Positions 1,116 through 63,296 are shown, counted from the stretch's first letter. The stretch: DNA of 64,000 nucleotides from an uncultured Nitrospirota bacterium (GCA_964515925.1 CAZEYP010000006.1:11591-75590); one strand, 5' to 3'. Program-made: numbers and translations. The notes: generated by a model from the letters alone, not told the origin.

Positions 1116-3539
1116 TTATACCTTCTCAAGTTTTACAGCACAAACTTTAAAGTCAGGCTCACCTGCACCTGACCAGCTCTTGGGAACATCTACGGTAAGG
1201 AGGTTAATCAGTTTATTTTCGTCAAACCATGGAACGAATACCATACCGGGCCTTGCCCTGTCGGTGACCCATACAGGTAAGACAATCTCACCCCTTCTGG
1301 ATATGATCTTTAGTTTATCTCCACTTTTCAGGTGTAATGATTTTGCATCCTCAGGGGAGACCTCTACATAGGCCCTTGGATTCATCTCCCTTAGAAGCCT
1401 GACCCGCATGGTAAGGGTGCCTGAGTGCCAGTGCTCTATTACACGGCCGGTGTTAAGCACATAGGGATATTCGACATCGGGCATCTCGTAATCAAGCCCT
1501 GCCTTAAGTACTCTTACAATAGCCTTTCCTTCCGAGCCCTTGTGGAATGGGTGATGACCATAGTAGTTAAATGGGCCCTTGTATCCCTTCTGTTCAAGGT
1601 GCTGGTCATATAGGGTGACATAGCCGGTCTTGTATTTTCTGTTTGCCCTGCCGTAGACCTCAAGGGCGTGGGCCTTGCTGATAAACCTCTTTGCAGAACC
1701 ACGGTTTTCGAAGTCCGTACTCGGACATGGCCATTGCACTCCGCCTGCATGTGCCTTGAGCTTTTCATATGTGGCGCCCCAGAGGTCCACATCCTGTCCT
1801 CTGGTGCAGAGCCTGTATTCATTCCATGCCTCCTCTTCGGTCCCAAAACCAAGTCCATAGACCTCTTTAATACTCTTCACTTCACCGGTCATGGGATCGA
1901 TAACCCTGTAATGGGTCATTCTGCCAAGTTTTTTTGCAATTCTCTTTGCCACCTCAAGTATCTGCCAGAAGTCAGCCCTTGCATCACCGGGTGGGTCTAT
2001 TACCTTGGGAATGAACTGTGACCTCCGGTCAGTCTGACCCATTACGCCCTCTTTTTCTACCCATAGTGCTGAAGGCAGTATTACCGATGCAAGCTCTGTT
2101 GTCCTTGTAGGATAGACATCGCTTACCACAGTGAATGCCTTTTTCATGGCCTTACGGTATTTACCGGCATTGGGCAGGCTCTGACCGGGATTAGTGGTAT
2201 TTATCCATATGGCCTTGATCTTGCCCTGACTTAGACGCATAAACATATTTACTGCAGGGCCAGTGGGTTTTTGGGGTAACCATTCCACAGGAACTCCCCA
2301 GATCTCGGCGATTTCTTTACGGTGTTTTGGATTAGCCACGGCTCTGTGGCCTGGCAGTATATGAGTGAGCCCCCCCTGCTCCCTTGTTCCTCCACAGGCA
2401 TTTGGCTGACCAGTGAGTGAAAGGCTGTCACAACCTGGTTTGCCTATCTTGCCGGTTATTAGATGCAGGTTGTGAAGCAGACAGTTAAGATGCACTCCTT
2501 TGGTCCTTTGATTGATTCCCATGGTCCAGATACTGAGTGTGGAGTATCCCTTTCTGCCAAACCACAGGGCAGCTTTTCTGATATCGGATGCCGGAACTCC
2601 TACAAGACCCTCTATTTTCTCTGGCGCATAGTCCTTGAGGAATTCCCTGTAGCTATTGAAGTCTATAAATTTGCCCTTGGTTTTAAGTCCTGTCCTGAAT
2701 GTACAATACTTCAGATGCTCTTCATCAATAAGCCCCTTTTCAACGATTACATAAGCCATTGAGTTAAGAAGATACATATCATAACCTGGACGGAATTTCA
2801 GATGCAGATCTGCATACCGGGCCGTAGGTGTATACCTTGGGTCTGCCACTACGACCTTTACCCTGTCAGGGTAGGCGCTCTTACGGTCAATGACCCTCCT
2901 GAACAGCATTGGATGGTTTTCTGCTGTGTTAGAGCCTATTATGAATATGCAATCTGCTGCATCAAAGTCATCGTAAGTGCCTGCTGGCTCATCAGTGCCA
3001 AAGGTATTCAGATAACCGCCAACAGCAGAGGCCATACAGAGACGAGGATTGCCCTCTACATTGGCTGTGCCAATGATACCTTTGAAGAGTTTGTTGGCTG
3101 CAAAGGCTTCCTGTGTAGTGTTTTGTCCTGAACCATACCAGGCAACCGAATCAACTCCATATTTTTTAATGTAGTGAACAAATCTATCGGCAATCAGGTC
3201 CAGTGCCTCATCCCAGGAAACCTCCTTATAACTTCCATCAGACTGTCTGACCATTGGTTTCGTTAATCTGTCCTTGCCATACATAATATGAGGCAGGGAA
3301 TAACCCTTCATGCAGAGCCTCCCAAAGTTTACAGGACTGTCGGCATCACCCTTAACAGCCACGACCTTACCATTTTTCACACCCACCAGAACCGCACACC
3401 CTGTGCCACAGAACCTGCATTGTGACCTTTCGTACCTGATTGATGAGTCTGCCACAGCATCTGCAGGCAACCCAGCCATGGCAAGAGCCGCTGCTGCTGC
3501 GGAGGCCTTGATAAAATCTCTTCTACTAAGTCCCATCAC
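1116..3539 (-). CDS. napA: periplasmic nitrate reductase catalytic subunit NapA (molybdopterin oxidoreductase)
   Basis: 807 aa with Tat signal SRRDFIKASAAAAALA. The N-terminal Fe-S motif CRFCGTGCAVLVG..C and KGYSLPHIMYGKDRL closely resemble my memory of the E. coli NapA N-terminus. RBS GGGAGG lies upstream. Confidence 0.85.
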   Translation of the reverse strand: MMGLSRRDFIKASAAAAALAMAGLPADAVADSSIRYERSQCRFCGTGCAVLVGVKNGKVVAVKGDADSPVNFGRLCMKGYSLPHIMYGKDRLTKPMVRQSDGSYKEVSWDEALDLIADRFVHYIKKYGVDSVAWYGSGQNTTQEAFAANKLFKGIIGTANVEGNPRLCMASAVGGYLNTFGTDEPAGTYDDFDAADCIFIIGSNTAENHPMLFRRVIDRKSAYPDRVKVVVADPRYTPTARYADLHLKFRPGYDMYLLNSMAYVIVEKGLIDEEHLKYCTFRTGLKTKGKFIDFNSYREFLKDYAPEKIEGLVGVPASDIRKAALWFGRKGYSTLSIWTMGINQRTKGVHLNCLLHNLHLITGKIGKPGCDSLSLTGQPNACGGTREQGGLTHILPGHRAVANPKHRKEIAEIWGVPVEWLPQKPTGPAVNMFMRLSQGKIKAIWINTTNPGQSLPNAGKYRKAMKKAFTVVSDVYPTRTTELASVILPSALWVEKEGVMGQTDRRSQFIPKVIDPPGDARADFWQILEVAKRIAKKLGRMTHYRVIDPMTGEVKSIKEVYGLGFGTEEEAWNEYRLCTRGQDVDLWGATYEKLKAHAGGVQWPCPSTDFENRGSAKRFISKAHALEVYGRANRKYKTGYVTLYDQHLEQKGYKGPFNYYGHHPFHKGSEGKAIVRVLKAGLDYEMPDVEYPYVLNTGRVIEHWHSGTLTMRVRLLREMNPRAYVEVSPEDAKSLHLKSGDKLKIISRRGEIVLPVWVTDRARPGMVFVPWFDENKLINLLTVDVPKSWSGAGEPDFKVCAVKLEKV

Positions 3540-3655: not shown

Positions 3656-3755
3656 ACAGGGGGTAGCGTGTAGGGTGTAAAAAAGACAGGGTGTAGGGGG
3701 TAGCGTGTAGGGGGTAGTAAAAGACAGGGGGTAGCGTGTAGGGAGTAGGGTGTAG
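3656..3755 (+). repeat. G-tract heptamer array (three modules of A-tract + ACAGGG(G/T)GTAG(C/G)GTGTAGGG...)
   Basis: Read directly: acagggggtagcgtgtagggtgt / acagggtgtagggggtagcgtgtagggggtagt / acagggggtagcgtgtagggagtagggtgtag. These are period-7 GTAGGGN/GTAGCGT units. Confidence 0.85.
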
Positions 3756-4372: not shown

Positions 4373-6916
4373 TCATAATTTTACTTTTACTTCAACTACA
4401 GAGCTAAAAAGTAAGAGATTTTTCCTGATCTTAAGGGTTACAGTTTCTCCCTGTGATTTGTCAAGTAAATATATTTTCAGGTCATCAACATCCTTTACCG
4501 GTTGACCATCAATAGATAATATTATTGAGCCAGCTGTAATTCCTGCTCTGTCTGCAGGGCTGTCTTCTGTAACTCTTTCAACCTTTACACCCTCGTCAGT
4601 CCTTTTTATAAAGACCCCAAGGCGGGGAGATCGAGGTGGATCTGCCCAGGCAGTATAGAACACATAGTCAGCCACTCCTCTTCCAAGTCTGTTTTCTCCA
4701 CCTTCCGAGCCATTTACAATAATAGAAAAAGTAACATTCCTTTTACGCTTCACTCTGTCTGGTATGCCCCAGGCATTCCTGATGTGACCATTTCCAGCAA
4801 TTACAATTATCTGTGAATCAGGGAATTTGTCGAGAGCCTTTATTACCGAGTCTGCCATTGTTTCATCCCAGATCAACTGAGAAAAGTAAAAGTTTTCAAA
4901 GGTCCTGCCCTTTCTTCTTCCATGTCGTGAAAATATCCTTTTAAGATACCGCAGGTATTCTCTGTTCTGAAGGTCTATTCCTTTTGGCAGGAGTTTTCTC
5001 TCATCAGGACTGAGGGAGTCGATTCCCTTTGAGGAGACCTTATCCACTATTTCTCTTTTTATATTCAGTGCAATTATTGGTATGCCCTTTGCCCTTGCAA
5101 ACTGAATAATGTCTCTGTAGAGGTTGTAGTCATAGACCCATCTCTTGAAGTATTCTGTTTTCTTAAGCATCTCTGCTTCAGTTATTTTGCCCTCAATAAA
5201 CTGGTCAAGGTACTTCTGAAAGGGACGTTGAAACATCTCCATTCCTATCACCAGATGTTTGTTTATTTCATAGAGCTTTCTTATTATTTCAAATTGTATG
5301 ATATGATGGTTGTAGTTGAGATGGTCCTCTCCTATGTAAACAATAGTTGAATCCTTTATTTGCTGAGCTATATCATCGATACTACCGCCCTCAGCAGGTC
5401 TTACTGCATGAAAGTCGTCACTGAGATTGATTATGATTCCCATGTCTCTATGATCGACTCTTTTTGAGATATTTCTGCCTTCTGAAAATGCAAGTTCAGA
5501 ATAATTGCCATAGTGCCCTATCTTGTGAAATGCCTTGCTTATTGCCTCAGCGTCTGATGCGTCTATCAGCATGATGTATCGAGCCTGGTTCAGAGGATTT
5601 GGAAAGACCCTGATATAAAAATCACCGTTTTCCTCTACATCGCTGTCAAAGGCCATCCTGAATACCCTGTTTTTAGATGAAAGGATTATGAAGGAATGCT
5701 CCTTAAGCTGATTGAATTTGAACTCCTTATCAGAGAAAACCCTGAGACCCCTGTTTTTGTAATACTGTATTATCTCATGATAGAGCGTCTTTTCCTCATC
5801 GCGGTATATAAGGCGGGCACCACTGTCGTCTTTTAGTGCCGAAATAAGAGGAGGGATTTCGTTTTTAGTGGGTATTCTGAAAAGGTCGTACTCAGGGTCT
5901 ATGACTATTTTAAAGGGATTTGCCCTGGTGTATAACTTAATATCTATACTGTCGCTGTCTACCTTTATCCTGTGGTTTTCCACCCCCTGCTCTGTGTAAA
6001 CCCTGATGGGAAGCTCAAAATTGTAGCTTATATCACCGGTTTGTTTGAGTTTCAGGCTGATAACATACCTTGCATTGCGATACAATACAGATATGTAATT
6101 CAGACTGAGTTTAATAGCCCCCTTTTTGTGTACCCAGTAATAAAAGAAGTCCTCCAGTGACCTCTTTGATACCTTTTCAAAGGTCTTTCTTATATCATCC
6201 CATCGAGCCTTCTTCCCGGCAAAATTCTTAATAAAGTCTCGGAGGCCCTGGTAGAAGACCTTATCGCCAAGCTCCACTCTAAGCATATGAAACACCATTG
6301 CTGCCTTTCCGTAACCAACCGCCTTTGTAAGGTTGTCTGTCCTGGTAGTGAATTCTCTTAGAGATATCTCCTCTTTACCTTTCGTATAATTGAGATAATC
6401 CAGCAGAAGTTTTTTTCTGTATACTGCTGCATTACCTTTAAGTTCACTCATTCTGTGGTCTGCAAGATATGTTGTCAATCCCTCAGACCAGTTTCCCTCT
6501 GATGGGTCAACCTCCACCAGAGAGCCAAACCATTGATGAACAATCTCATGGGGAAGGGATGTTTCAGGGATGAAGGGAAGCCTTATCACAGCAGAGCCAA
6601 ACAGTATATATCTTGGAAAGGAGACGCCAATGGGTCTGTCTGTTTCAACTATGTTGAGTTCTTTATATGGAAATGGGCCAAGAAGTGACTGAAAGTCTTT
6701 CAGGTATCCTTTGGTATATTCAAGATATTTCTCTGCAAGCTCAGGGTCGTCTTCCTTAAGATAGACCTTTATCTTTATCTCACCAAGCTGGTCTTTGTAG
6801 ATGTGGACCCCAGAGAGGATGAGTTGAGAGTTGTCTTTTCTACGGGATGCCTCCTTAGCTGATGCATTTATCACAAGCCCAAGCACACACACAAGGATTA
6901 AAAGGACTCTTTTCAT
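4373..6916 (-). CDS. secreted multidomain protein: HExxH gluzincin (M1/peptidase_MA-like) domain + ChaN/Tiki-like domain + C-terminal PDZ
   Basis: The start is moved to MKRVLLILV (ATG 6916, GGAGG upstream), which gives a signal peptide. HEIVHQWFG...E zinc motif at nt 6536..6550. Mid-protein IVYIGEDHLNYNHH...GMEMFQ resembles the ChaN/haem-binding-uptake family. The C-terminal GVKVERVTEDSPADRAGITAGSIILSIDG is PDZ-like. Confidence 0.7.
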   Translation of the reverse strand: MKRVLLILVCVLGLVINASAKEASRRKDNSQLILSGVHIYKDQLGEIKIKVYLKEDDPELAEKYLEYTKGYLKDFQSLLGPFPYKELNIVETDRPIGVSFPRYILFGSAVIRLPFIPETSLPHEIVHQWFGSLVEVDPSEGNWSEGLTTYLADHRMSELKGNAAVYRKKLLLDYLNYTKGKEEISLREFTTRTDNLTKAVGYGKAAMVFHMLRVELGDKVFYQGLRDFIKNFAGKKARWDDIRKTFEKVSKRSLEDFFYYWVHKKGAIKLSLNYISVLYRNARYVISLKLKQTGDISYNFELPIRVYTEQGVENHRIKVDSDSIDIKLYTRANPFKIVIDPEYDLFRIPTKNEIPPLISALKDDSGARLIYRDEEKTLYHEIIQYYKNRGLRVFSDKEFKFNQLKEHSFIILSSKNRVFRMAFDSDVEENGDFYIRVFPNPLNQARYIMLIDASDAEAISKAFHKIGHYGNYSELAFSEGRNISKRVDHRDMGIIINLSDDFHAVRPAEGGSIDDIAQQIKDSTIVYIGEDHLNYNHHIIQFEIIRKLYEINKHLVIGMEMFQRPFQKYLDQFIEGKITEAEMLKKTEYFKRWVYDYNLYRDIIQFARAKGIPIIALNIKREIVDKVSSKGIDSLSPDERKLLPKGIDLQNREYLRYLKRIFSRHGRRKGRTFENFYFSQLIWDETMADSVIKALDKFPDSQIIVIAGNGHIRNAWGIPDRVKRKRNVTFSIIVNGSEGGENRLGRGVADYVFYTAWADPPRSPRLGVFIKRTDEGVKVERVTEDSPADRAGITAGSIILSIDGQPVKDVDDLKIYLLDKSQGETVTLKIRKNLLLFSSVVEVKVKL

Positions 6917-13225: not shown

Positions 13226-13258
13226 ACAGGGAGTAGGGTGTAGGGAGTAGGGGGTATG
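13226..13258 (+). repeat. G-tract heptamer array (ACAGGGAGTAGGGTGTAGGGAGTAGGGGGTATGG)
   Basis: Same motif family as 3656..3755. It contains four GGG tracts separated by 4-nt loops (13229..13254). Confidence 0.85.
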
Positions 13259-14737: not shown

Positions 14738-16936
14738 ATGGGAATCAGCAGGCGAGAGTTTATCAAGTATGCTGCACTGGGTCTTGCTGGCTCAGCAGCG
14801 CTAACCACAGAGGTTTTTAAACCTCTTTCGGCAATGGGGCTTGATGATGACCGTGCAGTACTAAAGCATGTTCCCACCGTATGCGAGATGTGCTTCTGGA
14901 TGTGTGGTGCTATAGGGAGGGTGGTAAACGGAAGGCTTGTTAAACTTGAGGGTAACCCCCTTCATCCAAAAAGCCGTGGCCGTCTCTGTGCAAGGGGTAA
15001 TGCCGGAATGGGCCTTCTTTATGACCGCGACAGGCTAAAGGCTCCTCTCATTAGAACAGGTGCCAGAGGAGAAAACAAGTACAAGAAGGCATCCTGGGAT
15101 GAGGCCCTCAATTATGTGGCTGACAGGATGACCAAGATCAAGGAAAAATACGGTCCCGAGGCAATAGCCCTTTTTGCCCATGGCTCCCCGGGCAGTTATT
15201 TCTTTGATCTGCTTCTTGCAATGGGCTCTCCTAATATTACCTTTCCATCGTTTTCACAGTGCCTTGGGGCCAGGAATGTGGGATATGAACTGACCTTTGG
15301 AGAAGACCCTGGCTCAGGCCCTGAGAGGGTGGATATGGCAAACAGCAGGGTTATTGCCATGTTTGCCACTCACCTTGGTGAAAATATGCATAACTCACAG
15401 GTTCAGGATTTCACAGAGGCTGTTGGCAGAGGAGTAAAGCTGATTGTAGTTGACCCAAGATTCTCCACAGCAGCAGGCAAGGCACATTACTGGCTACAGA
15501 TCAAACCCGGCACTGACCTGGCATTGATGCTTGCCTGGCTTCATGTACTTATTTATGAGAAATGGTATGACGAGGATTATATAAGAAAATATACAGAGGG
15601 GTTTGAGGAGCTTAAGAAGGGTGTAAAGGACTACACCCCTGAGTGGGCAGAAAAGGAGACCGATATACCTGCAAGGTTAATCGTTGAGACAGCAAGGGAG
15701 CTCGGACGCTACAGGCCAAATGTGGTTGTTCATCCAGGCAGACATTATTCATGGCATGGTAATGACACCCAGAGGGCAAGGGCAAACGCCCTGCTGAATG
15801 CGGTACTTGGTACCTGGGGTGCAAGGGGTGGCATTTATCTGAAACCCCACGCAAAGCTTCCGTCGCTGAAGGGTAAACCCTTTCCTGAGCCACAGAGAGA
15901 ATCTATAGCTGTACCAGATAAGTATCCCTTTGCAGGTGGTGAGGGACTAACCAATGAGGTAAGAAGAGCCACTATAACGGGTGATCCCTATCCAATAAAG
16001 GCATGGATTGTAGTGGGAACCAATCTGGTGAAGACCCTTCCAAATCAGAAAGAGACACTTCAGGCAATAAAGAATCTTGACCTCTTCGTAAGCGTTGATG
16101 TGATGCCAATGGATACCACCATGCTTGCAGATGTAATACTGCCTGAGACCACATATCTTGAAAGACATGATGAACTAAAAAAGGTCTATGCAAAGTCACT
16201 GGGAATTGCACTGAGGCAGCCAGTGGTAAAGCCACTTTTTGAGGTAAAACCAGCATGGTGGATTGCCAAGCAGCTTGCAAAGAGGCTTGGCCTTGAGGAT
16301 TACTTCCCTTATAATCAGCTTGAAGACAAACTCCGCAAGCAGGCAAAGCTCTGGAATATAGACTACGATGAACTGAAGAGAAAGGGCTATCATGTAATAC
16401 CAAACTCGGCAAGGCCCTATTTTGGTCCTGACAATCCACCGAAATTCAAAACAGAGTCTGGAAAGATAAATCTCTACAGCAAAGAACTCGAGGCCTATGG
16501 CTTTGACCCGATTCCAAAATACACAAGGGTTGAGCAACCTCCCGAGGGTTATATGAGACTTCTGTATGGAAGGGTTCCAATGCACACCTTTACAAGAACG
16601 GTAAATAACAAGTGGCTCTGGGAACTTAAGAAGGAAAACCATGTATGGATAAACACAGAGGTTGCCAAGAGACTCAATATAAAGGATGGTGAGTATGTGG
16701 TGCTTGAAAACCAGGATGGCATACGAAGCAATAAGGTACTTGCAAAGGTAACAGAAAGGATAAGAAAGGATTGCGTCTATCTACCTCATGGTTTTGGTCA
16801 GATGTCAAAGCTTCTAAGCAGGGCCTATATGAGAGGTGCAGATGACCAGGGGCTGATAACAAAGTACAAGGTGGATCCCATATCAGGTGTAACAGGGATG
16901 AGGGTTAACTTTGTAAAGATTATAAAGGAGGCTTAG
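14738..16936 (+). CDS. molybdopterin oxidoreductase catalytic subunit, PsrA/PhsA (polysulfide/thiosulfate reductase-like) family
   Basis: 732 aa with Tat signal SRREFIKYAALGLAGSAAL and N-terminal CEMCFWMCG...C Fe-S motif. It is followed by 4Fe-4S and NrfD-type subunits. Substrate cannot be assigned from sequence. Confidence 0.8.
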   Translation: MGISRREFIKYAALGLAGSAALTTEVFKPLSAMGLDDDRAVLKHVPTVCEMCFWMCGAIGRVVNGRLVKLEGNPLHPKSRGRLCARGNAGMGLLYDRDRLKAPLIRTGARGENKYKKASWDEALNYVADRMTKIKEKYGPEAIALFAHGSPGSYFFDLLLAMGSPNITFPSFSQCLGARNVGYELTFGEDPGSGPERVDMANSRVIAMFATHLGENMHNSQVQDFTEAVGRGVKLIVVDPRFSTAAGKAHYWLQIKPGTDLALMLAWLHVLIYEKWYDEDYIRKYTEGFEELKKGVKDYTPEWAEKETDIPARLIVETARELGRYRPNVVVHPGRHYSWHGNDTQRARANALLNAVLGTWGARGGIYLKPHAKLPSLKGKPFPEPQRESIAVPDKYPFAGGEGLTNEVRRATITGDPYPIKAWIVVGTNLVKTLPNQKETLQAIKNLDLFVSVDVMPMDTTMLADVILPETTYLERHDELKKVYAKSLGIALRQPVVKPLFEVKPAWWIAKQLAKRLGLEDYFPYNQLEDKLRKQAKLWNIDYDELKRKGYHVIPNSARPYFGPDNPPKFKTESGKINLYSKELEAYGFDPIPKYTRVEQPPEGYMRLLYGRVPMHTFTRTVNNKWLWELKKENHVWINTEVAKRLNIKDGEYVVLENQDGIRSNKVLAKVTERIRKDCVYLPHGFGQMSKLLSRAYMRGADDQGLITKYKVDPISGVTGMRVNFVKIIKEA

Positions 16937-16940
16937 AGAG

Positions 16941-17498
16941 ATGCCAAAGTATGCAATGGTTATAGACCAGCGTCGTTGTATCGGTTGTCTTGCATGCATT
17001 GTGGCTTGCAAGCGAGAAAATCATGTTCCAGAGGAGCACTACAGGACAAGGGTAGTGGAGGAAGTAAATGGTAAGGCACCAAAGCTAAGGATGGAGCTCC
17101 GCTCTGAGCTTTGCAATCACTGTGACAATCCCCCCTGCGTGTATAACTGCCCAACCGGAGCATCCTATAAGGATGAAGACGGCACAGTACAGATAGACCG
17201 TAATAAATGCGTTGGTTGTAAGGCATGTATTGCTGCATGCCCTTACGATGCCCGTTACATTGACCCCGAGCATGGCTATGCAGACAAGTGCACCTTCTGT
17301 CAGCACCGGTTGAAGGTTGGAAAGGAGCCTGCCTGTGTTGCAACCTGTATCGGCAAGTCAAGGATCTTTGGTAATCTTGAAGACCCCTACAGCAAGGTGA
17401 GCCAGCTGCTTAAAGAGTACAGTTCCTATGTGAGACTGCCAGAGGCTGGAACCCATCCGAGGGTCTTTTATATCCGTAAACAATCAAAGCCAGAATAA
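16941..17498 (+). CDS. 4Fe-4S ferredoxin-type electron transfer subunit (PsrB/NrfC family)
   Basis: 185 aa with CIGCLACIVACK, CNHCDNPPCVYNCP, CVGCKACIAACP and CTFC...C clusters. Confidence 0.85.
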   Translation: MPKYAMVIDQRRCIGCLACIVACKRENHVPEEHYRTRVVEEVNGKAPKLRMELRSELCNHCDNPPCVYNCPTGASYKDEDGTVQIDRNKCVGCKACIAACPYDARYIDPEHGYADKCTFCQHRLKVGKEPACVATCIGKSRIFGNLEDPYSKVSQLLKEYSSYVRLPEAGTHPRVFYIRKQSKPE

Positions 17499-17511
17499 AA
17501 GGAGGTTTAAG

Positions 17512-18498
17512 ATGGAACTCACTATATACGGAACAAATGCATTGACCTATCCCCACCTGCATATCTGGGACTGGAGGATAGCAAGCTATCTTTTCCTTGG
17601 CGGCCTGACCGGTGGAGCACTGGTCATGTCTGCCATTGCCAACCTCAGAAAGGGGAAGAAAGAGCCCGAAGACAGGGCATGCTGTGTGAAGGTGCCTCTT
17701 ATAGCTCCGTTTATACTGATGCTTGGTATGTTTTTCATATTCCTTGATGTTGAAAGAAAGCTCAATTCTTTTCATTTCTATCTGACCTTTCAGCCTCTTT
17801 CACCCATGTCGTGGGGTGCCTGGGGTGTGGGTGCAGTGGTTCCGCTTAGTTTTCTTTATGGTTTGTCCACGGTGCCTGATGACTTGAAACACTGGCTTGT
17901 TTTTGATTTTCTCAAAAAGTGGTCTAAAAAGCTGAATCCCTACATGCGGGAGCTGGCGGTTATTAACTTTGTAATGGGTATCTTTGTGGGCATATACACT
18001 GGTGTGCTTCTTAGTTCCTTTGTGGCAAGACCACTCTGGAATTCGGCTCTGCTTCCCATACTGTTTCTGAATTCAGCCCTGTCTACAGGAGCAGCGCTGG
18101 TGATAATAATGGCAAGGAAAAACGAGGTGAAGCTCTTCTTCACAAAGGTGGATATATGGCTGATATTTTCAGAGATTACCCTTATTGCCCTGTTCTTCTA
18201 TGGCCATTACACATCCACTGCGTCTCACAGGGAATCAATAATGCCCTTTTTTACCTTCTCCCATGAGTTTTTCCCTTACTGGATCAGTGTCCTCCTTCTG
18301 AGCATCATATTCCCTCTTGCCATTGTGCTTAAATTCCTTGAGGTAAAGGGTGAGCATTCAGAGACACTGACTGGATTTGAGAAGTTCAGGATGAACCTCA
18401 GCGCCATTCTTGTGCTGGTTGGTGGATTCATTATCAGGATGGCACTTATCTATGCAGGTCAGCTTATTAAGATGACAGACAAGATAGCGAAGTTTTAA
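17512..18498 (+). CDS. NrfD/PsrC-type integral membrane quinol-interacting anchor subunit
   Basis: 328 aa with about 8 TM segments. It is the third gene of an A-B-C complex iron-sulfur molybdoenzyme operon. Confidence 0.75.
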   Translation: MELTIYGTNALTYPHLHIWDWRIASYLFLGGLTGGALVMSAIANLRKGKKEPEDRACCVKVPLIAPFILMLGMFFIFLDVERKLNSFHFYLTFQPLSPMSWGAWGVGAVVPLSFLYGLSTVPDDLKHWLVFDFLKKWSKKLNPYMRELAVINFVMGIFVGIYTGVLLSSFVARPLWNSALLPILFLNSALSTGAALVIIMARKNEVKLFFTKVDIWLIFSEITLIALFFYGHYTSTASHRESIMPFFTFSHEFFPYWISVLLLSIIFPLAIVLKFLEVKGEHSETLTGFEKFRMNLSAILVLVGGFIIRMALIYAGQLIKMTDKIAKF

Positions 18499-18580: not shown

Positions 18581-19801
18581 CTATTTCTGCCCTAACCCAA
18601 AGGCCTCATGTAGTGCCCTGACCGCAAGTTCTGTGTATTTGTCGTTAATCACGCAGGAGACCTTGATCTCCGAGGTGCTTATCATCATAATATTTACTCC
18701 GTGCTCTGCAAGGGTTTCAAACATCTTTGCTGCCACACCTGAGTGGGTCTTCATCCCAACGCCGACAATAGAGACCTTTGCAATACTCTCATCAATGACC
18801 ACTCCCCCTGCACCAAGCTCATCAGAGACCTTCTGTGCAATCTCCATGGCCCGGTCTTTATCAGTTTTGGGCACTGTGAATGAGATATCTGTTGACTTGC
18901 CATCGCTACTTATGTTCTGTACTATCATGTCTACCACGATGTTTGCATCTGCAATCTGTTTGAATAGCCTTGCAGCTATCCCCGGTCGGTCAGGTACCTT
19001 CAGTATGGTAAACTTTACCTGGTTTTTATCGTAGGCCACACCTGAGACCATTACCTTTTCCATCTCTTTATCCTCCTTACAAACATAGGTGCCCGGGGTA
19101 TCATTAAAACTTGACCTTACCACAAGGGGCACATTGTATTTCATGGCAAACTCCACTGACCTTGTCTGAAGCACCTTTGCACCGGAGCTGGCAAGCTCCA
19201 GCATCTCCTCGTAGGATATCCTCTGAAGCTTTCTTGCCTCTGGTACAATATTGGGATCAGTGGTAAATACGCCTTCCACATCAGTGTAGATCTCGCATAG
19301 GTCTGCATTGAGCGCCCATGCTATGGCAACTGCAGTGAGGTCTGAGCCCCCTCTTCCAAGTGTGGTAACATCTTCTCCTTCCTCTGTAACACCCTGAAAA
19401 CCAGCAACCACCACTACATAGCCATCCTCCAGTGACTGAATAGCCCTCTTTCCTGATATCCTTTCAATCTTTGCCTTGGTGTGAACTGAGTCGGTTACAA
19501 TACCCATCTGTCTGCCCGTAAGTGCTATTGCCTTATGTCCCAGTGCCTGGATTGCCATTGCTGTGAGTGCACTTGTTACCCGCTCACCTGAAGACAATAA
19601 AAGGTCCATCTCCCTTTCACCAGGGGAAGGGTTAACCTGATGGGCAAGCTCAATCAGTTTGTCTGTCTCACCTGCCATGGCAGAAACCACAACAACTACC
19701 TGATTTCCCTCTTCTACAGTCTTTGCAACCCGCTGTGCAACAGCCCTGATCCTGTCAATATTTGCAACGCTTGTTCCACCGTATTTCTGCACAATCAGCA
19801 T
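18581..19801 (-). CDS. lysC: aspartate kinase
   Basis: 406 aa. [25 protein letters not shown], followed by C-terminal tandem ACT domains. Confidence 0.92.
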
Positions 19802-19870
19802 CTGATTTGACCTCCTGGATTAAATTGTATACATGGAAAAGGAAGCAAGATAAACAGCACTACTAAAGGA

Positions 19871-21094
19871 TCACAAATCTAAGACCTTCCCCTTTATCAA
19901 AAGGTCCAAGAGCCTGTGGCCTTCCTCTATCTTTATAATATCATCCCTTTTCATGAGTTCTTCACTGTAGGTGATACTGCCGTTTTGCTGTTCATTGCTG
20001 CTGTCGTAGATTACAAAGGGAACGGGCTCAGGTGCATGAGTCCTTATCTCAATTGGTGTGGGATGGTCAGGCATCAGGAGTATCCTGTACTCTTCGAAGG
20101 CAGGCAATCCCCTTAGCACTGTTCCAACTACAAGGGCATCGAAGTCCTCGATGGCCTTTATCTTGTTTTTATAGTTTCCACTGTGGCCTGCCTCATCAGG
20201 TGCCTCAACATGGATATAAACAAAATCATGCCGCTCAAGGGCCTTCAATGAATATTCAGCCTTGCCCATGTAATTCGTATCCAGATAGCCTGTGACACCA
20301 GGTACATTTAGAATCTCAAGCCCTGCGTACTTTCCAAGCCCCTTTGTCAGGTCTACTGCACTTACCAGTGCACCGGTAATACTGTAGCGCTCTTCAAGTG
20401 TGGGAAGGCTCAGTTTCCTGCCCTGTCCCCAGAGCCAGATACTGTTTGCAATGGCCCTGCCCTCAGCCGCTCTCCTTCGATTTATTTCATGTGATTCGAG
20501 TATCTCAACAGACCTCTCCATAAGTGTCCTGATAAAGGTATCACCCTTTCCAAGGGGAAGATAATCTGTGATCTCCTTCCCTATTATGTCGTGTGGGGGA
20601 ACGCATTCGAGCTCTGTGTGCCCTCCATGCCACACCATGAGATGTCGATAGCTGACCCCTGGATAAAATATAATCTCATCCGTAGCGAGTTCACGGTTTA
20701 GTGCCTCAATCAGCTCTGCTGCCTCCTCGGTGCTTATATGGCCTGCACTGTAGTCTTCCATCACAGCCCTGTTACAGTGTTTATCGTATCTCAGTGAGAC
20801 CAGGTTACACCTGAAGGCAACATCATCATCCTTAAGCTCCACGCCCATGCTTGCAGCCTCAAGTGGTGCCCTGCCAGAGTAATACTTACGTGGGTCGTAA
20901 CCAAGTATGCTCATGTTTGCCACATCTGAGCCAGGTGGGAAACCCTCGGGGATGGTATTAACCACACCTATGAGACCCTTTTGTGCAATGTGGTCCATAT
21001 TCGGTGTAAAGGCTGCCTGAAGAGGTGTCTTACCTCCAAGGGCTTCAACAGGTCTGTCTGTCATTCCATCGCCTATTATTACAATGTATTTCAT
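19871..21094 (-). CDS. cofactor-independent phosphoglycerate mutase family protein (archaeal ApgM type); by context a candidate non-orthologous homoserine kinase
   Basis: 407 aa. MKYIVIIGDGMTDRPVEALGGKTPLQAA...PPGSDVANMSILGYDP is the ApgM-family N-terminus. It is wedged between thrC and lysC. Confidence 0.8.
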   Translation of the reverse strand: MKYIVIIGDGMTDRPVEALGGKTPLQAAFTPNMDHIAQKGLIGVVNTIPEGFPPGSDVANMSILGYDPRKYYSGRAPLEAASMGVELKDDDVAFRCNLVSLRYDKHCNRAVMEDYSAGHISTEEAAELIEALNRELATDEIIFYPGVSYRHLMVWHGGHTELECVPPHDIIGKEITDYLPLGKGDTFIRTLMERSVEILESHEINRRRAAEGRAIANSIWLWGQGRKLSLPTLEERYSITGALVSAVDLTKGLGKYAGLEILNVPGVTGYLDTNYMGKAEYSLKALERHDFVYIHVEAPDEAGHSGNYKNKIKAIEDFDALVVGTVLRGLPAFEEYRILLMPDHPTPIEIRTHAPEPVPFVIYDSSNEQQNGSITYSEELMKRDDIIKIEEGHRLLDLLIKGKVLDL

Positions 21095-21096
21095 GA

Positions 21097-22224
21097 TTAT
21101 TTAAATTCTAACACCCCGCTTAAGACATCTTCAACCGATTTAAGTGTGGGTTTTGCCTTCTTTGGCTCAGAGACTACCTTGAACACATTATCCGGGTCCT
21201 TTAAGCCATTTCCTGTAAGCGTGCAGACAACGGTCTCTCCTCCCTTGAAATAGCCCTGTCTGTATAGCTTAATAACTCCTGCAAGAGAAGCAGCAGAGGC
21301 AGGCTCGCAGAATACCCCCTCGGTGGAGGCAATGAGTCTGTATGCCTGGAGTATCTCTTCATCAGTTACTGCATCAATCCTGCCGCCAGACTCATCTCTT
21401 GCCTTTTCTGCCTTATGCCAGCTTGCCGGGTTGCCAATTCTTATAGCCGTGGCAATGGTCTCGGGTTTTTCGACCACCCTGCCAAGTACTATGGGGGCTG
21501 CTCCTTCGGCCTGAAAACCGAGCATTCTGGGCAGAGAGCCTATCCTTTTAGCCTTATAATACTCATTGTATCCCTGCCAGTAGGCACTAATGTTACCAGC
21601 GTTGCCAACGGGAAGGGCGTGAAAATCAGGTGCTGAGCCAAGCTGGTCGCAAACCTCAAAGGCAGCAGACTTCTGCCCCTCAAGCCTGTAAGGGTTAATG
21701 GAATTAACAAGGGTTATGGGGTATTTTTCAACCATCTCTCTTACAATCTGAAGTGCCTGGTCAAAGTTCCCCTCTATCTGTATAACCTCAGCCCCATGAA
21801 TGAGGGCCTGAACCAGCTTCCCAAGCGCAATCTTTCCTTCGGGTATAAGCACAATTGCCTTTATCCCTGCACGGGCTGCGTAGGCTGCTGCTGATGCAGA
21901 GGTGTTGCCAGTGGATGCGCATATTACAGCTCTGGCGCCTTCTTCAACAGCCTTTGATATGGCAAGGGTCATTCCGCGGTCTTTGAAAGAGCCTGTAGGG
22001 TTTGCTCCATCAAACTTGAAGTATAGATTAAGGTCAAGGCCGATCCTGTTTTTAAGATTTACGGCATTAATAAGTGGGGTGTTTCCTTCATAAAGGGTAA
22101 TTACGGGGGTTTTTTCTGTGACCGGCAGGAACTCTCTGTATTCATTGAGAATTCCTCTCCAGCGTCGGGGCATTCGGTCGTCATCAGACGACTGAGTTGA
22201 CAATTGCGTCTCACTCTGTGTCAT
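21097..22224 (-). CDS. thrC: threonine synthase
   Basis: 375 aa with the PLP lysine motif [12 protein letters not shown] and [14 protein letters not shown]. Confidence 0.85.
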
Positions 22225-22245
22225 GATTGAGCATCCTCCTTAAAA

Positions 22246-22482
22246 CTATTCTATGAAGTCTCCTTCGACATGCTCTACCTCAACACCCTGCTGGCGAAGG
22301 GATTCTATACCCTGTTCAAGGTTTTTCTCATCGCCCTCAAGCTCAAGGATCATCTCGCCAACAGTCTCAGTTACACGAGCACGCCTGATATTGGGCATCA
22401 CATCATACTTTTTTGCCATACTAAAGAGCACAGGCTCTTTGATAAGGTGCTGTGGAAAGGTTAGTTTTACCCTTATCTTCAT
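22246..22482 (-). CDS. NIL domain protein (stand-alone MetN C-terminal-like domain)
   Basis: 78 aa. KIRVKLTFPQHLIKEPVLFSMAKKYDV..NIRRARV..GEMILELEGDE..QGIESLRQQGVEVE matches the NIL pattern. Its start overlaps the stop of the carrier gene. Confidence 0.7.
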   Translation of the reverse strand: MKIRVKLTFPQHLIKEPVLFSMAKKYDVMPNIRRARVTETVGEMILELEGDEKNLEQGIESLRQQGVEVEHVEGDFIE

Positions 22483-22763
22483 TAAATCCCCCTTCCCCCT
22501 GCAATAGCAGGTACAATTGAGACCTCATCACCGTCTTTTACCTCGGTGTTTTCAGCATCTTTGAAACGGATGTCTTCTTCATTAACATAGATATTCACAA
22601 ACCGTCTGACCTTTCCGTTTTCGGTAATTCTCTCAGCAAGTCCAGGATACTGGGAATCCAGGTCGTTTATCAGGTCGATGATCTTACCTGGCTTGCCTTC
22701 TACCTCTGCCTTACCCTCGGTAAGCCTCTGAAGTGGTGTTGGTATCAAAACCTTTACTGCCAT
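22482..22763 (-). CDS. ThiS/MoaD-family sulfur carrier protein with C-terminal GG followed by RGI
   Basis: 93 aa with a beta-grasp-like pattern ending ...DGDEVSIVPAIAGG-RGI. Confidence 0.75.
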   Translation of the reverse strand: MAVKVLIPTPLQRLTEGKAEVEGKPGKIIDLINDLDSQYPGLAERITENGKVRRFVNIYVNEEDIRFKDAENTEVKDGDEVSIVPAIAGGRGI

Positions 22764-22800
22764 TTGTTACCCCCTTTCTTTTGTTTAAATTTAAACTTAA

Positions 22801-22873
22801 GGGTGTAGGGTGTAGGGGGTAGCGTGTAGTGATTAATTTTTTTACTACTCCCTACTCCCTACACCCTACTCCC
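22801..22873. repeat. inverted pair of 30-nt heptamer arrays (G-rich 22801..22830, C-rich 22844..22873) forming a long imperfect hairpin
   Basis: gggtgtagggtgtagggggtagcgtgtagt / 13-nt A/T loop / actactccctactccctacaccctactccc. I count 26 of 30 positions as complementary. Confidence 0.85.
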
Positions 22874-22877
22874 TTTT

Positions 22878-24116
22878 TTATTCCCTGTTTATCTCCTTCA
22901 GCACTTCCTCAAAGGCATCAAGAGAGGGTTTGATGAGCTTTGGCTCATCCATCCTTCCATCAAGTGCCTCTTTGGTTTTAAGACCGTTTCCTGTTATGCA
23001 TATAACGGTGGTTTCGTTTTTACCAATCCTGCCCTGCTCAATCAGCTTTTTTGTGACAGCCACGGTAACTCCACCTGCAGTCTCTGCAAAGATTCCTTCG
23101 GTGCGGGCAAGCATCTTAATACCTTCAACTATCTCATCATCTGTTACATCCTCTCCATAGCCACCTGAGTCCTTAACCGCTTTGTAGGCATAGTATCCAT
23201 CAGCAGGATTTCCTATTGCAAGGGATTTTGCAATGGTGTCAGGTTTAACCGGTCTTATTACATCGGTATCATTCTTGATTGCCGTGGCAATGGGATTACA
23301 GCCGAGGGCCTGGGCAGCAAAGACCCTGGTGCTTACATCCTTCAGAAGTCCCACCTCTTTTAGTTCTTTAAAGGCCTTCCATATCTTTGTAAGCAAAGAA
23401 CCGCTTGCACAGGGCACCACCACATTATCGGGTGCCTTCCAGCCAAGCTGCTCAGCTATCTCAAAGCCTATGGTCTTTGAACCCTCAGCATAAAAGGGTC
23501 GGATGTTTATATTAACAAAGGCCCATTTGTATTTATTAGCGATTTCACTGCATAGACGATTAACATCATCATAGTTTCCATCCACTGCTATAAGATTGGG
23601 AACGAAGACCTGTGATGAAACAATTTTACTCTGCTCCAGGGTTGCAGGTATGAAAATAAACCGATTAAAGCCAGCCTTTGCACCCTGGGCTGATACAGAA
23701 TGGGCAAGGTTTCCTGTTGATGCGCAGGCAACAGTGTCAAAACCGAACTCCTTTGCCTTTGTAAGTGCAACTGCCACCACCCTGTCTTTAAATGAGAAAG
23801 TGGGATGTGCCACGGTGTCGTCCTTTATGTATAGTTCTTTAACGCCAAGCTCTTTTGCCAGATTATTGGCCTTGACCAGTGGAGTAAATCCCGAGTACAG
23901 GCCTGCCTGTGGCTCTCCATCTATTGGCAGGAGTTCTTTGTATCGCCAGAGGTTTTCATCTCTATTTTCAATCCTCTTTTTTGTTACAGCCTTTTTTATC
24001 CTCTGGTAGTCATAAACAACCTCTAATGGACCAAAACAGAACTCACATACATATATGGGTTCTATGGCATACTCTCTGCCGCATTCACGGCACTTAAGTC
24101 CGGTAACAAACCCCAT
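22878..24116 (-). CDS. threonine synthase paralog (PLP fold type II) with N-terminal zinc ribbon
   Basis: 412 aa. The N-terminus reads CRECGREY..CEFCFGPLE. The PLP motif is HPTFSFKDRVVA, followed by STGNLAHSVSAQGA. This is the second ThrC-family gene in the cluster. Confidence 0.75.
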   Translation of the reverse strand: MGFVTGLKCRECGREYAIEPIYVCEFCFGPLEVVYDYQRIKKAVTKKRIENRDENLWRYKELLPIDGEPQAGLYSGFTPLVKANNLAKELGVKELYIKDDTVAHPTFSFKDRVVAVALTKAKEFGFDTVACASTGNLAHSVSAQGAKAGFNRFIFIPATLEQSKIVSSQVFVPNLIAVDGNYDDVNRLCSEIANKYKWAFVNINIRPFYAEGSKTIGFEIAEQLGWKAPDNVVVPCASGSLLTKIWKAFKELKEVGLLKDVSTRVFAAQALGCNPIATAIKNDTDVIRPVKPDTIAKSLAIGNPADGYYAYKAVKDSGGYGEDVTDDEIVEGIKMLARTEGIFAETAGGVTVAVTKKLIEQGRIGKNETTVICITGNGLKTKEALDGRMDEPKLIKPSLDAFEEVLKEINRE

Positions 24117-24336
24117 AGTCGCCTCCTTGTATATCAGAAAATGTAGTATGTCAGCAAAGATAGTAATTGATATTTTAACGCAAACTGGCTATAAAAAGGA
24201 ACAGGACTTCCACGAACATTAATATTGTATAAGTATAAGCCGGGGTGTTCTGTGTGAACTTAATTTATCTTAGATACCCTGTCTATGAGTTGTATCAATC
24301 AAATTTTTTAAACTGTGAATGATAGAATAAAGGGGC

Positions 24337-40879: not shown

Positions 40880-40886
40880 ATTTATT

Positions 40887-41315
40887 GGGCAGGCAATAAG
40901 CCGGGTTCTGTACTGGTGGTCATTTATCTGAGGCAGAGGATTGCTCCCCTGCTCATGCGGCCTACCCGTTCCGTACAATCAGGCGGGCCACCTTCTGGGC
41001 GGAACCTATTTGGCCTTGCTCCGGACAGGGTTTGCCGTGCCTGGAGTGTCGCCACCCCAGCGGTGGGCTCTTACCCCACCTTTTCACCCTTACCCCGCAC
41101 CCAGTTGGTTTTCAGAAGGGTGTCTTTTCCAATCTGGCAATAAAGATTAGTGCTATAACCTTCTTTTTACTCCTGAAACCCAACTGGGTGCGGGGCGGTC
41201 TGTTTTCTGTGGCACTTTCCCTTGGCTTACGCTAGGTGGCTGTTAGCCACTGTCCTGCCCTGCGGAGCCCGGACTTTCCTCTGGAGTATATACTCCAGCG
41301 ACCACCTGCCTGCCC
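40887..41315 (-). ncRNA. rnpB: RNase P RNA (bacterial type A) with extended P12
   Basis: The minus strand contains GAGGAAAGTCCGGGCTCC, GGTAAGGGTGAAAAGGTGGGGTAAGAGCCCACC, GGAGCAAGGCCAAATAGG and ACAGAACCCGGCTTAT. P1 pairs GGGCAGGCA with TGCCTGCCC. The ends are approximate to within a few nt. Confidence 0.9.
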
Positions 41316-41431
41316 TTTATATTTTGTGGTTAAACAAGAACAAATTAATAAGCCTGGGGCTTACCCAGGGAGTTTCATTTATTTTAGCATTTTCCTGTTG
41401 TTTAATATGGGGGAGTAAAAAACAACAATAT

Positions 41432-63230: not shown

Positions 63231-63296
63231 GGGAGTAGGTGGTAAAAAAGACAGGGTGTAGGGTGTAGCGGGTAGCGTGTAGGGAGTAGGGTGTAG
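63231..63296 (+). repeat. G-tract heptamer array (second full copy of the composite element)
   Basis: gggagtaggtggtaaaaaagacagggtgtagggtgtagcgggtagcgtgtagggagtagggtgtag. Confidence 0.85.

Follow-up and report, generated by a model that had tools for sequence, protein, structure and literature searches.

Why does a gene cluster of the threonine pathway hold two genes of the threonine synthase (ThrC) family, one of them beside genes for a sulfur-carrier protein and a NIL-domain protein? The question is raised by six minus-strand genes on a stretch of DNA of 64,000 nt from an uncultured Nitrospirota bacterium (GCA_964515925.1 CAZEYP010000006.1:11591-75590), referred to here as the window, in which all coordinates are counted. 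According to the interpretation favored here, to which a probability of roughly three in four is given, the cluster is a single operon located at the O-phosphohomoserine (OPHS) branch point, and the second ThrC-family protein (the paralog) is an ortholog of MetM that would use the thiocarboxylate of the carrier to form homocysteine. The comparisons described below support, at the level of orthology, the view that the cluster does not represent a separate pathway but adds a member from a further phylum to MetM/MetO, which was published in 2024.

The six genes listed in the initial annotation were all recovered as open reading frames (ORFs) at exactly the coordinates given there, each with a strong family match. 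Together with the region preceding them, they are as follows.

24117..24336, minus strand: operon upstream intergenic (promoter) region, without riboswitch
22878..24116, minus strand: candidate homocysteine synthase of the MetM type, a pyridoxal phosphate (PLP) enzyme of fold type II and of the ThrC family with an N-terminal four-cysteine zinc ribbon, 412 aa
22482..22763, minus strand: MetO/CysO-type ThiS-fold sulfur-carrier protein, 93 aa (ThiS Pfam E=1.1e-16)
22246..22482, minus strand: stand-alone NIL-domain protein, 78 aa (NIL Pfam E=6.9e-19)
21097..22224, minus strand: canonical threonine synthase ThrC, 375 aa (TIGR00260, 334.9 bits)
19871..21094, minus strand: HomK/ThrB2, homoserine phosphotransferase of the ApgM family, 407 aa (TIGR02535, 572 bits, cutoff 446)
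18581..19801, minus strand: aspartate kinase (lysC) with AA_kinase and two ACT domains, 406 aa (NF005155, 613 bits)

In operon order from the paralog the gaps between genes are 114, -1, 21, 2 and 69 nt, the carrier gene beginning 114 nt downstream of the paralog and homK starting 2 nt past the thrC stop. The overlap of the carrier and NIL genes noticed earlier was confirmed, since the NIL ATG shares one base with the carrier TAA (TAATG), and the NIL gene is apparently translationally coupled to the carrier gene. No terminator-like site was found on the minus strand inside the cluster; the six genes thus likely form a single operon. The proS gene lies upstream of it in the window, and one weak sigma-70-like match (24348-24319, minus strand) overlaps the end of the proS ORF.

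The homocysteine route that serves as reference had been mentioned in the initial annotation as a Streptomyces pathway, and it proved to be real and published in 2024. As described in an article that cites it, MetM from Streptomyces albulus is a threonine-synthase homologue that converts O-phospho-L-homoserine into homocysteine (Hasebe et al., 2024, cited in PMC12172450); a riboswitch for S-adenosylmethionine (SAM) is located upstream of metM and the sulfur carrier is named MetO (PMC12172450). The GapMind 2026 preprint gives MetO, the hydrolase Mec, the E1 enzyme MoeZ and MetM as the steps of the pathway, and states that MetM is frequently mis-annotated as threonine synthase (10.1101/2024.10.14.618325). 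Proteins of TIGR02535 (HomK = ThrB2) make OPHS, and one of them, BT2402, complements an Escherichia coli thrB mutant according to the same preprint (10.1101/2024.10.14.618325).

The paralog (22878..24116) contains a PALP domain (E=2.8e-68) preceded by a CxxC...CxxC ribbon (C9, C12, C24 and C27) that matches Pfam NinF. Among the NCBIfam models it reaches 289.9 bits with TIGR00260 (thrC), above the cutoff, and 302.4 bits with NF006050, slightly below the cutoff of 303. It is 53-55% identical to homologs from Streptomyces, Kitasatospora, Streptosporangium and Nocardioides, and 37% identical to the ThrC encoded in its own operon. Among 1.8 billion cluster representatives searched, there is a large family of ribbon-bearing ThrC-like proteins, the nearest clusters being 43-58% identical to the paralog, among them P0125 from Micromonosporaceae (54%). 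The source of the window is placed in Nitrospirota/Thermodesulfovibrionales, and the closest named relatives of the paralog come from Dissulfurispira spp. (~81% identity). In a neighbor-joining tree the paralog groups with the Dissulfurispira proteins and P0121, adjoining the actinobacterial clade and far from ThrC. A distant subfamily of zinc-ribbon ThrC-like proteins, 36-39% identical to the paralog, carries a C-terminal winged helix of the PadR type (P0210, P0226, P0257 and P0270), which in one member, P0261, is replaced by a LeuA allosteric (dimer) domain.

The other ThrC-family protein of the operon (21097..22224) is a canonical ThrC. It scores 532 bits with ThrC from Aquifex aeolicus (2ZSJ) and 467 bits with that from Thermus thermophilus (1UIM), the range across the bacterial ThrCs 2ZSJ, 6CGQ, 1UIM and 2D1F being 445-532 bits, and it keeps the phosphate-site residues T88, N154, S155, R160 and N188 (T. 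thermophilus numbering, used throughout). An alignment of six true ThrCs, four of them with crystal structures, and 18 proteins of the MetM clade shows that both groups share K61 (the PLP lysine), S84-T85-G86-N87, N154 and T317. The MetM clade is distinguished by V-V in place of G64-M65 and by T88L, S155N, N157R and R160Y, and further by A-S-G in place of G187-N188-A189, by A240S, by D-G in place of S248-W249 and by D323T; all of these states are found in the window paralog. In structural work on T. thermophilus ThrC, the residues T88, S155, R160 and N188 are reported to contact the substrate phosphate, which then assists the addition of water. Remodeling of this site would fit an enzyme that needs to avoid the formation of threonine. 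The residue set of the clade (T88L, S155N, N157R, R160Y, the ASG loop, DG and D323T) also provides annotators with a simple tool to separate MetM-like proteins from ThrC.

To examine the context of the actinobacterial homologs, species-representative genomes were scanned with a P0125-led alignment; 80 actinobacterial loci were obtained, about 20 of them from Streptomyces species. By ORF and phmmer annotation, a ThiS-like gene directly follows the ThrC-homologue in Streptomyces, Kitasatospora, Streptosporangium, Nocardioides and others, and most actinobacterial loci outside Micromonosporaceae have a ThiS-like gene directly downstream. A SAM-I riboswitch (63-79 bits) is present immediately upstream in all eight actinobacterial loci scanned with Rfam. 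Because of the upstream SAM-I and the downstream ThiS-like carrier, these loci correspond to the published description of metM-metO. In a group of loci from Micromonosporaceae, Geodermatophilaceae and other actinobacteria (L003-L027), the MetM-like gene has no ThiS-like neighbor within 8 kb. Two loci of the group, L003 (Asanoa) and L021 (Trujillonella), were scanned with Rfam, and both show a SAM riboswitch upstream; the carrier of this group must be either encoded elsewhere or dispensable. With the SAM-I covariance model R1, 22 of 88 sources were positive, all of them metagenomic MetM-like loci. Upstream of the window paralog, neither Rfam (gathering threshold, or relaxed to E<=10) nor model R1 detected a riboswitch, and none was found upstream in Dissulfurispira and other Nitrospirota-like loci.

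The carrier (22482..22763) is 46-47% identical to the Streptomyces carriers adjoining metM orthologs, and its best NCBIfam matches, SAMP1 and archaeal MoaD, are below or barely at the cutoffs. It shares with MetO and CysO the signature RRFVN(I/V)YV..(E/D)D(I/V)RF...S(I/V)(I/V)PA(I/V)AGG, the actinobacterial version of which reads ...RRFVNVYV..DDVRF...SIIPAVAGG, with an extra C-terminal Cys in some proteins. Whereas the actinobacterial carriers mostly end in GG or in GG plus one residue (Cys in the examples seen), the window protein terminates in ...AIAGG-RGI, three residues past the GG, and because of this ending it is predicted to need C-terminal trimming.

Genes that could perform such trimming, and the activation that follows it, are found in relatives. 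In Dissulfurispira thermophila the gene order is hom, TusA, ThiF-type E1, Prok-JAB, paralog, ThiS, NIL, ThrC, HomK, ..., LysC; the E1 is a short enzyme of the MoeB/ThiF/UbaA type that lacks a rhodanese domain, while the JAB protein resembles desampylase. E1 and JAMM genes also lie directly upstream of the same core in the metagenome locus L091 and, less tightly, in the Nitrospirota genome CP070669. The core paralog-ThiS-NIL-ThrC is kept with variable flanks in CP070669 and in the metagenome contig L088, and no Moco (molybdenum cofactor) or thiamin genes adjoin it in the D. thermophila, CP070669 and L088 loci inspected. Because this four-gene core recurs in related Nitrospirota genomes, the arrangement is not due to chance. 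Equivalence of the cluster to MetM/MetO, a question raised in the initial annotation, is backed, at the level of orthology and context, by identity, tree, residues, carrier, the E1/JAMM genes of relatives and the OPHS-forming family of HomK. In a database protein of 563 aa (P0233), a ThiF (E1) domain precedes a MetM-like PALP domain in the same chain; if not an artefact of gene calling, this fusion would be Rosetta-stone support for a functional link between E1 and MetM.

When metagenomes were scanned with the family consensus as lead, 80 loci with GC contents from 37% to 74% were obtained, of which 62 are informative in that their sequence continues for 1.2 kb or more past the MetM-like gene. 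The carrier is present in 56 of these 62 and a NIL ORF in 37; E1 genes occur in 28 loci, often two of them, JAB in 12, TusA in 8, a CysK/CysM-type cysteine synthase in 17, canonical ThrC in 5 and HomK in 4. The triad paralog-ThiS-NIL is also found in L089 and L085, which represent two other lineages with MetM-like proteins 52-58% identical to that of the window. In nine loci (L105, L123, L124, L136, L152, L153, L155, L160 and L161) the series ThiF, MetM-like, ThiS, NIL and second ThiF is present without exception, with a JAB gene following in six and CysK/CysM preceding in five; this suggests that both cysteine and homocysteine are reached there by one combined protein-thiocarboxylate route employing two E1 enzymes. 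An ORF of L096 (2584-3696) reads as a fusion of ThiS (residues 6-68) with the cysteine synthase CysK (72-367), and could be either a real carrier-enzyme fusion or an artefact of ORF calling.

Gene content, orthology, synteny and, in other lineages, membership in SAM riboswitch regulons connect the cluster with metM-metO, and the chemistry proposed is taken over by analogy from the published Streptomyces system. Aspartate kinase would open the aspartate pathway and HomK would phosphorylate homoserine to OPHS, from which canonical ThrC would form threonine. The MetM-like paralog would catalyze instead a gamma-replacement on OPHS by the C-terminal thiocarboxylate of the MetO-type carrier, leading to homocysteine; indirect support for this conversion comes from the operon itself, which encodes both the maker of OPHS, HomK, and its competing user, ThrC. 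In order to be loaded, the carrier would be trimmed after the GG by a JAMM protease and then adenylated and sulfurated by a ThiF/MoeB-type E1, TusA being the probable sulfur relay in this lineage; the E1 and JAMM proteins of this genome would have to be encoded outside the window.

The NIL protein, made in step with the carrier, would add a third, stoichiometric component to this scheme. Its match to PF09383 reaches 68 bits against a cutoff of 24, and its residues N31-I32-R33 align with N295-I296-I297 of E. coli MetN, and A35 with A299. In MetN, N295 forms a hydrogen bond with the bound L-methionine, and the N295A substitution abolishes binding (PMC6233128). The NIL/ferredoxin proteins are genetically required for the DUF39 homocysteine pathway in Desulfovibrio and Methanosarcina (PMC5764234). 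The domain thus recurs in three methionine contexts, namely MetN, the DUF39 pathway and MetM/MetO. While MetN (C2 domain) and the DUF39-related proteins combine it with ATPase or ferredoxin modules, here it is a free protein of 78 aa with neither of them. The motif 'NIRrA' shows a conservation of at least 80% in a set of 55 NIL ORFs taken from MetM-like loci, and in the metagenome loci the NIL start mostly lies ~-16 to +77 nt from the carrier stop. None of the 80 actinobacterial loci contains the gene. In nine loci NIL occurs together with a SAM riboswitch, which suggests that NIL belongs to the methionine regulon. A role of NIL as a substitute for the SAM riboswitch, with mutual exclusion of the two, was considered and rejected, since among 60 loci 27 have NIL alone, 17 neither element, 9 both and 7 the riboswitch alone. 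An 88-aa ORF after ThiS in L083 was likewise discarded as a diverged NIL, as it has no similarity to it.

NIL as a widespread partner of MetM/MetO outside Actinobacteria appears to be undescribed, and no literature tying NIL to thiocarboxylate pathways was found. It is tentatively proposed, as a possibility still less probable than its opposite, that the protein is a third MetM/MetO subunit outside Actinobacteria, an ACT-like sensor that would bind methionine, homocysteine or SAM through the conserved Asn and gate the enzyme or the hand-off from the carrier. If so, this small subunit would tune the MetM-like enzyme and set the split of OPHS between threonine and methionine. The valine-sensing small subunits of acetohydroxyacid synthase and the SAM-activated threonine synthase of plants are analogues of such a sensor. 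The scan of ten longer family members for Rosetta-stone fusions between NIL and the enzyme found none, which counts against this part of the proposal. Two loci carry two NIL ORFs upstream of the MetM-like gene (L108, 4213-4939; L167, 4141-4879); judging by coordinates, a SAM riboswitch (4448-4573) is located between the two ORFs in L167, while in L108 the second NIL ORF is over-extended at its start and there overlaps the riboswitch.

Several other explanations of the cluster have to be weighed. The paralog may be a second genuine threonine synthase, adjacent by accident to a carrier and a NIL protein that serve an unrelated sulfur task such as Moco or thiamin synthesis or tRNA thiolation. The TIGR00260 score above the cutoff, the conserved PLP lysine and STGN motif and the annotation of every database copy as threonine synthase are in favor of this explanation, which is nevertheless unlikely: a canonical ThrC (532 bits to 2ZSJ) is encoded three genes away, the paralog lacks T88, S155, R160 and N188, invariant in the six true ThrCs compared, and the pairing with ThiS extends across phyla (56/62 loci). 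In addition, its orthologs lie behind SAM riboswitches and not behind threonine-responsive elements, and Moco or thiamin genes do not adjoin it in the loci inspected. The same riboswitches, which sense SAM, weaken the case for another sulfur product, that is, cysteine formed from O-phosphoserine in the manner of CysM/CysO, or cysteate. Such a product would be consistent with the ThrC-family membership of cysteate synthase and with the CysK/CysM-type synthases found beside the same carrier and E1 genes in 17/62 metagenome loci; yet these cysteine synthases, where present, are separate genes additional to the MetM-like one, the paralog obtains 70 bits with the cysteate synthase model (cutoff 324.9) and ~40 bits with cysteine synthase models, and its neighbors in the window are enzymes that make and consume OPHS, so that this alternative is judged quite unlikely.

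It is very unlikely that the carrier, E1 and JAMM proteins constitute a ubiquitin-like conjugation system of the SAMP/Urm1 kind, with the ThrC paralog as a target or an unrelated neighbor. The names of the best NCBIfam matches would favor it (SAMP1 for the carrier, 51.1 bits; 'SAMP-activating enzyme E1' for the Dissulfurispira E1, 343 bits; 'desampylase' for JAB, 83 bits), but all three are under the curated cutoffs (60, 450 and 130 bits, respectively), the carrier bears the CysO/MetO signature, and operon linkage to an enzyme of the PLP gamma-replacement type together with SAM riboswitches in other lineages points to biosynthesis. Known SAMPs also serve as sulfur carriers, and the roles in conjugation and in sulfur transfer are not exclusive. 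Most improbable among the alternatives is the assignment of NIL to the DUF39 (COG1900)/NIL-ferredoxin route from aspartate semialdehyde to homocysteine in place of MetM/MetO. Some database copies of NIL are annotated as 'ferredoxin' or 'L-aspartate semialdehyde sulfurtransferase ferredoxin', in line with the genetic requirement reported for that route (PMC5764234); however, the 78-aa protein has no ferredoxin domain, no DUF39 gene was recognized by eye in the window and none is present among the precomputed Pfam annotations of related loci, and NIL is coupled to the carrier gene and accompanies the MetM-like gene in 37/62 loci.

Other observations weigh against the assignment of the cluster to the MetM/MetO pathway itself. 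A cyanobacterial homolog 51.6% identical to MetM is reported not to be fully MetM-like in vivo, not to rescue methionine levels and to possess threonine-deaminase activity (PMC12172450); membership in the MetM clade is therefore no guarantee of function. The Streptomyces comparators were picked by riboswitch and synteny, so that the identities given refer to these proteins and not to the assayed MetM of S. albulus. The absence of an SAM riboswitch upstream means that there is no direct regulatory tie to methionine in this genome. Finally, the initial annotation had found no E1 or JAMM gene in the window, and none was seen among its translated ORFs of at least 110 aa, which were read by eye with no profile search, a procedure in which a JAMM protein of ~135 aa might, with low probability, slip through.

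When the proposed MetM/MetO assignment is compared with known systems, the closest likeness is to S. albulus MetM/MetO, in which a ThrC-homologous PLP enzyme is encoded beside a CysO-like ThiS-fold carrier, with OPHS as substrate and with a requirement for E1 and a JAMM hydrolase. The window cluster differs from it by the lack of a detected SAM riboswitch, by the NIL gene inserted after the carrier and by the co-operonic thrC, homK and lysC, and the E1 of its relatives is, in contrast to Streptomyces MoeZ, of the short ThiF/MoeB type without rhodanese domain and located beside TusA. The CysO-CysM-Mec+ system of Mycobacterium tuberculosis likewise combines a protein thiocarboxylate as sulfide donor, a fold-type II PLP enzyme and an O-phospho amino acid; the CysO signature is very similar to that of the window carrier. 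CysM belongs to the cysteine synthase family and converts O-phosphoserine into cysteine, whereas the enzyme here is of the ThrC family and its neighbors make or use OPHS. In Wolinella succinogenes, the HcyS-HcyF-HcyD-MetY system, which Krishnamoorthy and Begley reportedly described in 2011, is said to form homocysteine from a ThiS-like thiocarboxylate after JAMM-type trimming of a C-terminal extension and activation by E1. There the substrate is O-acetylhomoserine and the enzyme, MetY, is of fold type I, while a ThrC-family enzyme and, presumably, OPHS would be used here.

In plants OPHS is shared by threonine synthase, which is activated by SAM, and cystathionine gamma-synthase. Since OPHS is common to the threonine and methionine branches, flux partitioning has to be controlled. 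The methionine branch of plants employs cysteine and a fold-type I enzyme, and regulation resides inside threonine synthase; in the window cluster the MetM-like enzyme would serve that branch, with NIL as the candidate regulator. Threonine and methionine synthesis would thus part at OPHS, as in plants, with the competing enzymes encoded in one operon. On this interpretation the methionine route published in 2024 for Streptomyces would extend to sulfur-cycling Nitrospirota and to many uncultured lineages. Its variant features are the conserved NIL partner, the joining of thrC, homK and lysC to the same operon and, in relatives, an E1 that lacks rhodanese and is accompanied by TusA. The uniform mis-annotation as 'threonine synthase' would hide the route from automated reconstructions, and could yield false calls of methionine auxotrophy.

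The gap between the paralog and carrier genes contains an additional feature:

22797-22887, no strand assigned: long hairpin of (GGGWGTA)n heptamer repeats (-47.5 kcal/mol, z=-6.8)

The same heptamer repeat, arranged in tandem in an element of intergenic location, occurs elsewhere in the window at 3689-3755, 13229-13257 and 63254-63296. In all there are 14 pattern matches, with 0.08 expected by chance, and in Rfam the hairpin at 22797-22887 gave generic microRNA-hairpin matches only. Its interpretation as an operon-specific attenuator was rejected in view of the dispersed character of the repeat, its three further copies and the lack of a U-tail; the element looks like a member of a REP-like (repetitive extragenic palindrome) repeat family of this genome.

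Three plus-strand genes convergent with lysC (14738-18498) recall, when their translations are read by eye, the Psr/Phs/Ttr-type reductases of polysulfide, thiosulfate or tetrathionate. Their products look like a 732-aa molybdopterin oxidoreductase with a twin-arginine translocation (TAT) signal, a 185-aa 4Fe-4S protein and a 328-aa membrane protein of the NrfD type. A second molybdopterin oxidoreductase with a TAT signal (1116-3539, minus strand, 807 aa) appears by eye to be NapA- or formate-dehydrogenase-like. The window also holds a class A RNase P RNA (40881-41317, minus strand, 314 bits), in which one helix has an insertion of ~85 nt relative to the Rfam consensus.

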